Source: Octopus sinensis (lineage: Eukaryota). Taken from it: a stretch of DNA of 20,243 bases. Position 1 is the stretch's first letter. The number at the start of each line of letters is the position of its first letter. Under the pieces are notes generated by a model, which saw only the letters and a program-made list of their open reading frames with translations, did not search any database and had not been told where the DNA came from. Of this stretch, positions 5,481 to 20,243 are shown piece after piece. The stretch spans positions 1 through 20,243 of the forward strand of contig NW_021824039.1 in NCBI RefSeq assembly GCF_006345805.1, read 5' to 3'. The translations under genes were made by a program, and so were the position numbers.

Positions 5481-5887
5481 AGCGCAGGAGTGGCTGAGTG
5501 GTAAGTAGCTTACTTACCAACCACATGGTTCCGGGTTCAGTCTCACTGCGTGGCACCTTGGGCAAGTGTCTTCTAATATAGCCTCGGGCCGACCAAAGCC
5601 TTATGAGTGGATTTGGTAGACGGAAACTGAAAGAAGCCCGTCGTATATATGTATGTGTGTGTATATGTTTGTGTGCCTGTGTTGTCCCCTAACATCGCTT
5701 GACAACCGATGCTGGTGTGTTTACGTCCCCGTAACTTAGCGGTTCGGCAAAAGAGAAGACCGATAGAATAAGTACTAGGCTTACAAAGAATAAGTCCTGG
5801 GGTCGATTTGGTCGACTAAAGGCGGTGCTCCAGCATGGCCGTAGTCAAATGACTGAAACAAGTAAAAGAGTAAAAGAGTAAAAGAGA
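5481..5887 (+). mobile_element. Full-length tRNA-derived SINE, family A
   Basis: gcgcaggagTGGCTGAGTGGtaag (A box), GGTTCAGTCTC (B box), central domain, 3' ggcggtgctccagcatggcc and (gtaaaaga)3 tail; matches the reverse complement of 1230-1637. Confidence 0.93.
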
Positions 5888-12444: not shown

Positions 12445-12638
12445 ATTAATAGTAATAGTATGACAACAAAAGAATGAACGATCGAATCGATCGCAATGAT
12501 ACCTGGTTGATCTTGTCAGTAGTCACTGGTGTACCTTTTGTGATCTAGATATATGTTTTATAATATATTTTATTTTTTCTATATGGTATGGTGTATGTCA
12601 TCATTGTTTGAATTACATAATAGTGGTTTTTCTCTAAC

Positions 12639-12730
<92 letters not shown>

Positions 12731-12969
12731 TGTATGTATGTATGTATACACACAAGAGGTACGCAATGAAACATGTTTCATACCGAGAGCAACCTTTAAA
12801 TTAAAATTTTTATTCCTTAGATATTTACTCGTCAAGTTTTTAATATTCAGTTATTATTTAAATTTATTATTTGTATTTCTATTCATTTGCACATGTTAAG
12901 TAAGATTATATTGAAGATATAGAGTATCATGGAAGTATATAAGAGTTAGGGGTAGTGAAAAATGTTGAG

Positions 12970-13098
12970 GAATCCAGACCTGACGATTGGGAGTATGTCG
13001 ACCCGAGTAAGTATTGAAACTAGATACCTCGTATCTAATCAATACCGACGTACTTTCATGAAACGCGTGTAGTCTTATAAACGGAAAATACAGGATTC
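12970..13098 (+). ncRNA. Type-I hammerhead ribozyme with long extended stem II
   Basis: agac CUGACGA(12980-86) u [ugggaguaugucg/cgacguacuuuca 13 bp; guauuga/ucaauac; uagauac/guaucua] u GAAA(13060-63) cgcgu GUA|gucu. Stem I agac/gucu, extendable by gaaucc/ggauuc; predicted cleavage after 13071. Confidence 0.8.
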
Positions 13099-13317
13099 AG
13101 AATAGATATAGCTAGTTAAGATTTAATTTTTAATATTTTATAGAGTGGTCGGGTATAAAAATCTTAGTGTTGACTGAGTTGAAGGTGGTTCTGTCTCTAA
13201 AATTACTTTTATATATATGAATTAAACATTGAGAGATGTTCATTTTAGGACATCTAATTTGAATGTCTTTCTCCTGTGTACTCGGAACTAATATTACCTA
13301 ATAATTATAATATATAT

Positions 13318-13357
<40 letters not shown>

Positions 13358-13420: not shown

Positions 13421-14172
13421 ATAGTGTAATAAATAAAATATATGCATATATACAAACATATATGTACGTACCTACATCTACATGTACATATACATGCATA
13501 TATAAATATATATAAACAGTACTTGGAGAAGAAGAAGAACGGAACGAAACGAACGAATCGAATCGAATCGACGCGAGGGCGCTGTCAAACAATAGTGTAA
13601 TAAATAAAATATGTGCATACATACAAACATATATGTACGTACCTACATCTACATGTACATATACATGCATATATAAATATATACGTAAGTACAGGACACC
13701 ACAACTAGACGTAGAACTCAACGAGAAACGAAAACGGAAAAACAAGCATGGAACAAACCATTTTTTTACAACAGAAAAACAGAGTACAAGACAAACACGA
13801 GGAAAAATCCTTCATCAGCTGTCCCTAGTTCGACTCTAGCGTGTCGACGAAACACGCTAGAGTCGAACTAGGGACCGCTGATGAAGGATTTTTCCTCGTG
13901 TTGTCTTGTACTCTGTTTTTCTGTTGTAAAAAATGGTTTGTTCCATGCTTGTTTTTCCGTTTTCGTTCTCGTTGAGTTCTACGTCTAGTGTGGTGTCCTG
14001 TACTTACGTATATATTATATATGCATGTATATATACATGTAGATGTAGGTACGTACATATATGTTTGTATGTATGCACATATTTTATTTATTACACTATT
14101 GTTTGACAGCGCCCTCGCGTCGATTCGATTCGATTCGTTCGTTTCGTTCCGTTCTTCTTCTTCTCCAAGTAC

Positions 14173-14177
<5 letters not shown>
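13421..14177. mobile_element. Partial-tandem plus inverted repeat element (Penelope-like pLTR architecture); arms 13514-13844 / 13852-14177, direct copy 13421-13512 of 13592-13683
   Basis: Arms match apart from about 5 single-base indels and 2 substitutions, with a 7-nt loop cgacgaa. Contains GAAAC and CTGATGA boxes near the apex. Flanked by (TA)n. Confidence 0.8.
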
Positions 14178-19976: not shown

Positions 19977-20046
19977 GATATATATATTTCGTTTTGGGTT
20001 TGCTTTGCAAGATTCTTTATGTGAGTTCGTGTGTTGAAGCATATTC

Positions 20047-20197
20047 TGTTGTGTCTGGGGAGAGTCATTCTCTTTTGGTGCCTTATAATTTAACACACTC
20101 ACCGGTAAAAAAAAAGAAGTGGTAATTTGGTAATTTTACCGGTGAGTGTGCTAAATTATAAGGCACCAGAAGAGAATGGCTCTCCCCCGACACAACA
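20047..20197. repeat. Fold-back element with 64-bp arms, 20047-20110 / 20134-20197
   Basis: 4 mismatches; both arms carry ACCGGT next to the 23-bp spacer; followed by (TA)n. Confidence 0.92.

Positions 20198-20243
<46 letters not shown>

Follow-up and report, generated by a model that had tools for sequence, protein, structure and literature searches.

The closest described relatives of the ribozyme reported here are the type I hammerheads of Hydra-clade Penelope-like elements (PLEs; Craig 2021, PMC8557442). In File S2 of that paper, 14 of 25 Hydra families have the U·U form (CUGANGA-U...U-GAAA), and stem III is palindromic (ACAC.GUGU in Hydra-1_cRog and Penelope-17_HM). Those elements and ours also share the location of the motif at the element end, (TA)n targets, and the DKT and CxCX5C motifs. 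They differ in stem II, which by our count has 12–26 nt in File S2 against 68–73 nt here and 107 nt in one family (G, below). Our element, with a 3' UTR of ~1 kb and a total length of >3 kb, is likewise unlike the published Hydra elements, and the Hydra-1_Obim hammerhead differs in sequence. The longest stems II in the paper's PLE table, ~50 nt, belong to the spike-moss elements PLE-X1_sMoe and PLE-X1_sTam (~54 and ~48 nt, counted), which are marked there as deviating from the canonical structure. These plant elements are Chlamys-related and EN-less, their stems II are shorter than ours, and no three-segment rod is described for them in that file.

Three further systems share parts of the arrangement. 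The minimal, dimer-acting metazoan PLE hammerheads (Cervera and de la Pena 2014, PMC4209133) also lie in the pLTR, with a 4-bp stem I, a palindromic stem III and a helix II longer than canonical, in elements that leave solo, truncated and inverted copies. Their helix II, however, has 6–8 bp, a G10.1-C11.1 pair and one additional 5' nucleotide, whereas ours has 27 bp in three segments and a U·U. Variants described by Perreault 2011 (PMC3088659) include the U10.1-U11.1 closure, there the best-tolerated mismatch at that position, and stem I-II pseudoknots. The stems II discussed there are short, and the pseudoknot proposed for our locus would need a partner ~78 nt past the cut. In Poseidon of Anolis (Frangieh 2024, PMC11167929), the hammerhead sits at the pLTR/ORF junction, uncut RNA is the template, and two internal reverse-transcription starts lie downstream of the hammerhead. 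There the ORF begins inside stem II and the starts are 30–40 nt apart; here ~300 nt separate the hammerhead from the ORF, and the two ends, both at AT-rich runs, have ~95 nt between them.

What is known at our locus is the ribozyme type, the transposon group and the U·U closure; what appears new is how long stem II is and how it is segmented. We found no stem II of 68–73 nt in the literature searched, although Lunse 2017 and the supplements of Cervera 2014 could still contain long-stem variants. A preliminary description of this DNA had suggested an undescribed architecture. That holds for stem II as far as its size and its division into segments go, while the rest is a standard PLE pLTR ribozyme. 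We consider it probable that this is a pLTR type I hammerhead, predicted to cut after 13071 only as a palindrome-paired dimer, whose stem II is a lineage-specific, tolerated extension held in a self-folded state by selection.

The hammerhead in the window

The window, the whole 20,243-nt stretch of Octopus sinensis DNA that was analysed, carries one such motif, within the following features (all on the + strand; family letters are defined below).

~12805..13312: 3' UTR and pLTR remaining from a 5'-truncated, ORF-less copy (family A) of a Hydra-type Penelope-like element; it stops at (TAA)n beside a (TA)n/(TG)n microsatellite
12970..12975: distal stem I, 5' side, partner 13093-13098; present in families A and A2, with no clear counterpart in BC, D and F
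12976..12979: proximal stem I, 5' side, partner 13072-13075; pair 2 is A-U, G-C or U-A by family
12980..12986: catalytic strand CUGANGA, with N7 = C here
12987..13059: stem II, 73 nt, U10.1·U11.1, 13+7+7 bp in three segments
12988-13000/13046-58: 13-bp helix of stem II
13001-10: 10-nt 5' bulge of stem II
13011-17/13039-45: 7-bp middle helix of stem II, followed by a 3x1 loop
13021-27/13031-37: 7-bp apical helix of stem II, with a 3-nt loop
13060..13071: GAA, stem III palindrome A15.1..U16.1 (13063-70) and A17; predicted cut after 13071
13072..13312: stretch 3' of the cut site, the 5' UTR part of the pLTR, which continues into the ORF start in tandem copies
13146..13154: proposed pseudoknot partner (not established) of the stem II bulge, to which it is complementary; also complementary to the catalytic strand
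13207..13218: internal TA-rich run, preferred 3' end no. 1 of copies (17/32)
13299..13312: internal TAA run, preferred 3' end no. 2 (13/32), where the window copy ends

Core and stem I lie where the preliminary description put them. CUGANGA, GAAA and UH follow one another on the + strand in type I order, as CUGACGA (12980-86), GAAA (13060-63) and GUA (13069-71). Stem I pairs AGAC (12976-79) with GUCU (13072-75) and, around a 17-nt bulge, GAAUCC (12970-75) with GGAUUC (13093-98). Position N7 is A in 61 of 64 family A copies and C in 2. Stem I has 4 bp in the window and 2–3 bp in families BC, D and F; it covaries between families, its second pair being AU in 13, GC in 6 and UA in 3 of 25 aligned copies, and is unformed in the nested monomer fold of most families. 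A possible third segment of stem I in family A (12959-12968 with 13130-13139, 10 bp) is AT-rich and unformed in this copy's ensemble.

Stem III is predicted to pair between molecules. The palindrome ACGCGU seen earlier is present in the window, but G13065 occurs in only 2 of 64 family A copies, so ACGCGU is copy-specific and lies off the register that a dimer would use. In family A, the dimer palindrome is the 8-mer ACACGUGU (13063-70), from which the window departs by one G·U-forming change. A monomer stem III costs +2.4 kcal/mol and the palindrome duplex yields -10.3 kcal/mol (-9.5 in the window), a combination that fits the dimer model (Cervera 2014, PMC4209133; review PMC6765202). Among relatives, stem III reads ACAAUUGU, ACGUACGU, AUGUACAU, AGUACU or the near-palindromic ACAUUUGU: the sequence differs between families and self-complementarity is kept.

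Stem II folds as first described, with 73 nt in helices of 13, 7 and 7 bp. The 13-bp helix has pair probabilities of 0.97–1.0, except 0.42 for its first pair, and its three non-Watson-Crick pairs (12990·13056, 12991·13055 and 12996·13050) are all G·U. Its fold energy is -27.5 kcal/mol (z -5.8), matched by 0 of 500 shuffles, against -19.3 kcal/mol for the antisense strand, which bears out the assignment of the structure to the + strand. The U·U closure (U12987 opposite U13059) had been called atypical; it is the form of the majority of published Hydra families (14 of 25), and natural U10.1-U11.1 has been reported (Perreault 2011).

Comparison with Rfam, proposed earlier as a check, gave no hammerhead match in the window at E values up to 10, and only miRNA-like matches on simple repeats. 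The long stem II is a likely cause of the missing match.

The long stem II across families

The long stem II is genuine and shared across families, with compensatory changes in a rod common to five of them. We searched the genome for CTGANGAT-N60..90-TGAAACACGTGT (also given as core-N60..90-UGAAACACGUGU), using the reversed pattern as control, and obtained 288 matches against 2. Spacers of 91–125 gave 32 matches against 0, and spacers of 6–59 gave 41 against 0, a set that includes many deletion copies. The excess of 288 over 2 shows that the pattern is not a product of chance. Chance resemblance, or an artefact of a single decayed repeat copy, might be suspected from the absent Rfam match and the richness of the window in simple repeats; with the pattern counts, the covariation, the position in the pLTR and the likeness to published Hydra hammerheads all refuting it, we give this explanation almost no credence.

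Clustering was done on 137 distinct hits from fetched loci, a subset of the pattern matches. It yielded families BC (37 copies, stem II of 70 nt), A (34, 73 nt), G (22, 107 nt) and D (12, 68 nt), and the smaller A2 (4 copies, 73 nt), E (4, 69–71 nt) and F (4, 69 nt), leaving one spurious pair and 18 singletons. Six of these families (A, A2, BC, D, E and F) are related, with stems II of 68–73 nt that are 48–81% identical. Family G (L163, L164, L176, L177 and others) instead has a branched stem II of ~107 nt, with TA-microsatellite-like hairpins and a second, internal CUGANGA.

Folding recovers one geometry repeatedly. Stem II z scores are -5.8 in A, -4.5 in F, -3.7 in BC, -3.0 in E, -1.9 in D and -1.5 in A2, where the apical helix is weak (P 0.07). 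In A, BC, D, E and F, stem II is an unbranched rod: a long basal helix (12–14 bp), a 5'-side loop, a middle helix (5–8 bp), an asymmetric loop and an apical helix (3–7 bp). The recurrence of this geometry across families goes beyond what tolerance alone would require, although common descent explains part of it.

Covariation, which the preliminary description had named as a check, supports the helices in part. A MAFFT alignment of 25 copies, unfitted to structure, was scored over stem I, stem III and the basal 11 bp of stem II: pairing holds in 83% of cells, against 33–56% when slid. There are 41 double changes where shuffles give 18.9, a kind of count that kinship inflates, and 2 of 5 shuffle measures are non-significant (166/500 and 439/500). 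Because distal registers slip, RNAalifold on the unfitted alignment recovers no more of stem II than its first 6 bp; it also gives a wrong core pairing. A CM-fitted alignment gives 87% paired against 39–48% slid, figures that carry little weight since it is biased toward the structure; in addition, one of its rows (L152:35-138) is false and several others are misaligned. Pair 3 of stem II, 12990/13056, is G·U in 23 of the 25 aligned copies, across six families, while its neighbours covary; it may be a conserved contact.

The same genome also holds short-stem relatives. A search for stems II of 16–18 nt, mostly with the same U·U, gave 733 matches against 17 controls, many of them identical. In a tree of 15 ORF-start pieces of 900 nt each, 6 of whose 12 branches are open, L214 (stem II of 16 nt) and L217 (70 nt) fall within one 100/100 clade. 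That close relatives with stems of 16–18 nt have spread argues that the long arm is dispensable.

The element and the ends of its copies

On motif traits and a by-eye comparison with the proteins of the Craig 2021 supplement, we assign the element to the Hydra-type PLEs. The traits are those that section 11 of Craig 2021 gives for the Hydra clade. Longer copies encode RT and then a C-terminal EN (order seen in L062-L065), and a single 774-aa protein, P0002, is matched by the RT pieces as well as by the EN pieces. No Pfam family was found for these pieces or for the three homologues P0001-3; one homologue bears a name from Argonauta, which together with the microsatellites suggests an octopus-like cephalopod as host. 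DKG is replaced by DKT (SDKT in L062 and L065), a CxCX5C linker precedes EN (CNCRDKNNC in L061, CNCRDNNNC in L063), and the CCHH motif is absent, CxxC and CxH flanking the conserved E and N (by eye, L065 2778-3293). At the N-terminal RWK position, the sole readable copy, L065, has KWK; L064 is frameshifted, P0002 has RWK and P0001 RWR. Insertion is into (TA)n, as in the Hydra clade. L063, L064 and L066 are longer element copies interrupted by a different non-LTR retrotransposon with long intact RT frames.

The hammerhead lies ~1 kb past the EN stop and ~300 nt ahead of the next ORF. Sequence like the window tail enters the ORF in sense in 4 of the 20 loci fetched with an ORF start (L201, L202, L204 and L206), and in L202 a complete long-stem hammerhead continues in sense into the ORF. 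This continuity in tandem loci places the motif in the pLTR. Two other origins were rejected. A Naiad PLE, an idea taken from the 'half core' remark in Craig 2021, needs an N-terminal EN, and here EN is C-terminal. Non-LTR retrozymes are described as tandem non-coding units with a hammerhead in each (bioRxiv 10.64898/2026.07.22.740005); our copies are solo or inverted and ORF-linked, with no tandem non-coding hammerhead units.

Family A is a repeat with 346 candidates in its own 2.72-Gb genome. Of the 346, 40 were scored and gave 44 matches, 92–96% identical apart from the window itself. Among 64 distinct copies from fetched loci, median divergence from the majority sequence is 5.3%. The window holds a single hammerhead-type stem III motif, and its copy is a solo, dead-on-arrival fragment of ordinary decay with no nearby partner, and is likely inactive.

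Other repeats share the window. A tail fragment of another Hydra-type family (12529-12643, 88% to L219) ends in (TA)n directly upstream of the studied copy; the L219 hammerhead has a 77-nt stem II with G-C closure and the palindrome AUGUACAU. A 163-nt inverted repeat (13514-13676 / 14015-14177, 99% complementary, 338 nt between arms) with a partial third copy at 13421-13505 resembles a recent MITE-like or inverted retroelement end. A long MITE-like hairpin of ~65 bp with A-C/G-U mismatches (20045-20200) gives sub-threshold miRNA model matches, and a common SINE-like repeat, present in several copies and both orientations, covers 1440-1857 and 5489-5752.

The right ends of family A copies are clustered, while left ends are variable and frequently fused to an inverted piece. 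Among 32 hammerhead-spanning matches (loci L001-L030, L004 left out as a duplicate), 17 end near 13218 in the TA run and 13 at 13310-13330 in the TAA run; the matches were chosen for spanning the cut, so the count cannot reveal copies made from cut RNA. With 30 of 32 ending at one of these two points, copies extend 150–240 nt beyond the cut to two AT-rich starts, which makes uncut RNA the likely template. Two inverted pieces begin within 7 nt of the cut, at 13068 and 13078. Of 24 listed sequencing runs, 8 have contigs that extend over the element, several of them across the cut site; such contigs show neither ends nor strand.

These observations can be arranged as follows. A read-through transcript of tandem elements would bring two hammerheads together; two copies paired through the 8-nt stem III palindrome would then cleave slowly and release unit RNA. 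Inserted copies would come from uncut RNA, probably primed at internal AT-rich runs, and extra loop II sequence would persist only when a self-contained rod leaves the core free.

Copying from RNA that spans the cut site also invites another explanation: that the hammerhead is no longer usefully fast, and that rod and core are kept so that the element's own RT-EN protein can recognise them, or because they serve translation of the ORF that follows. Hammerhead mutants leave insertion by the Anolis PLE in vitro unaffected (Frangieh 2024), families BC, D and F have a very short stem I, and the motif lies ~300 nt upstream of the ORF; type I hammerheads in RNA virus 5' UTRs do affect translation, but cleavage is required there (PMC13725137). 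Against this, the core recurs in many families while the stem II sequence turns over, an invariance partly imposed by the search pattern, and stem I and the dimer palindrome covary, as catalysis would predict. We regard such a non-catalytic role as quite unlikely and favour the slow dimer-acting ribozyme.

Proposed pairing of the stem II bulge

The preliminary description had proposed a pseudoknot between the stem II bulge, acccgaguaa, and 13149-54. The two are indeed complementary, but the pairing is significant only in the window's family, and in the nested fold of the window copy it is the catalytic strand, not the bulge, with which the downstream segment pairs (P 0.98). A pairing of the bulge with the 17-nt bulge of stem I was also considered and rejected: it offers only 3–4 bp, with no covariation in family A (P 0.16).

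On a rival reading, the long stem II would be a working domain that sets the timing of cleavage, its bulge making a tertiary contact (with 13146-54 or the stem I bulge) or serving as a decoy that keeps the downstream UCGGGU segment off the catalytic strand. The duplex of the bulge with 13146-54 is worth -11.7 kcal/mol, at P 0.012 for the family majority sequence and 0.006 for the window against shuffles. Family A2, in the same register by eye, keeps 9 of 10 pairs, one of which has changed on both sides from A-U to G-C. Pairing with the core is also open to this downstream segment, at P 0.006 in the window and, at a different site, P 0.004 in family D, and a stem I-II pseudoknot occurs in ~40% of hammerheads (Perreault 2011).

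The comparison across copies and families speaks the other way. Pairing of the bulge is non-significant in 5 of 5 sister families (P 0.39–0.76), and bulge length varies between about 4 and 10 nt. Within family A, C13150 is absent from 11 of 64 copies and replaced by A in 6 of 64; the copies with the deletion share further changes and so represent a subfamily, of 12 copies, that spread. Three of the 64 copies carry a G-C to A-U double change, which falls at CpG sites. The anti-core pairing reaches P<0.05 in just 2 of 13 sequences, with the L214 family outside that set. A working domain of this kind seems unlikely to us, and a working pseudoknot or switch, while possible, is unlikely.

A more specific version can be stated. 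The bulge carries a better match to the downstream segment than the core does (ACCCGA against ACCUGA), and loop II of cephalopod Hydra-type elements might act as a regulatory domain, in which a 5' UTR segment shuts the catalytic strand until the bulge captures that segment and reopens the core. We rate this as a long shot. If true, one RNA could switch between cleavage and serving, uncut, as a template for reverse transcription.

These hammerheads widen the range of natural stem II sizes known from Penelope-like elements, about threefold over the published Hydra examples. Rfam misses motifs of this kind, as descriptors with a size limit would presumably do too, and the number of PLE ribozymes is therefore probably underestimated. 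The genome itself provides a natural panel of stems II of 16, 18, 55, 68–77 and 107 nt with the same core and self-specific palindromes, which should be useful for asking what PLE hammerheads do.
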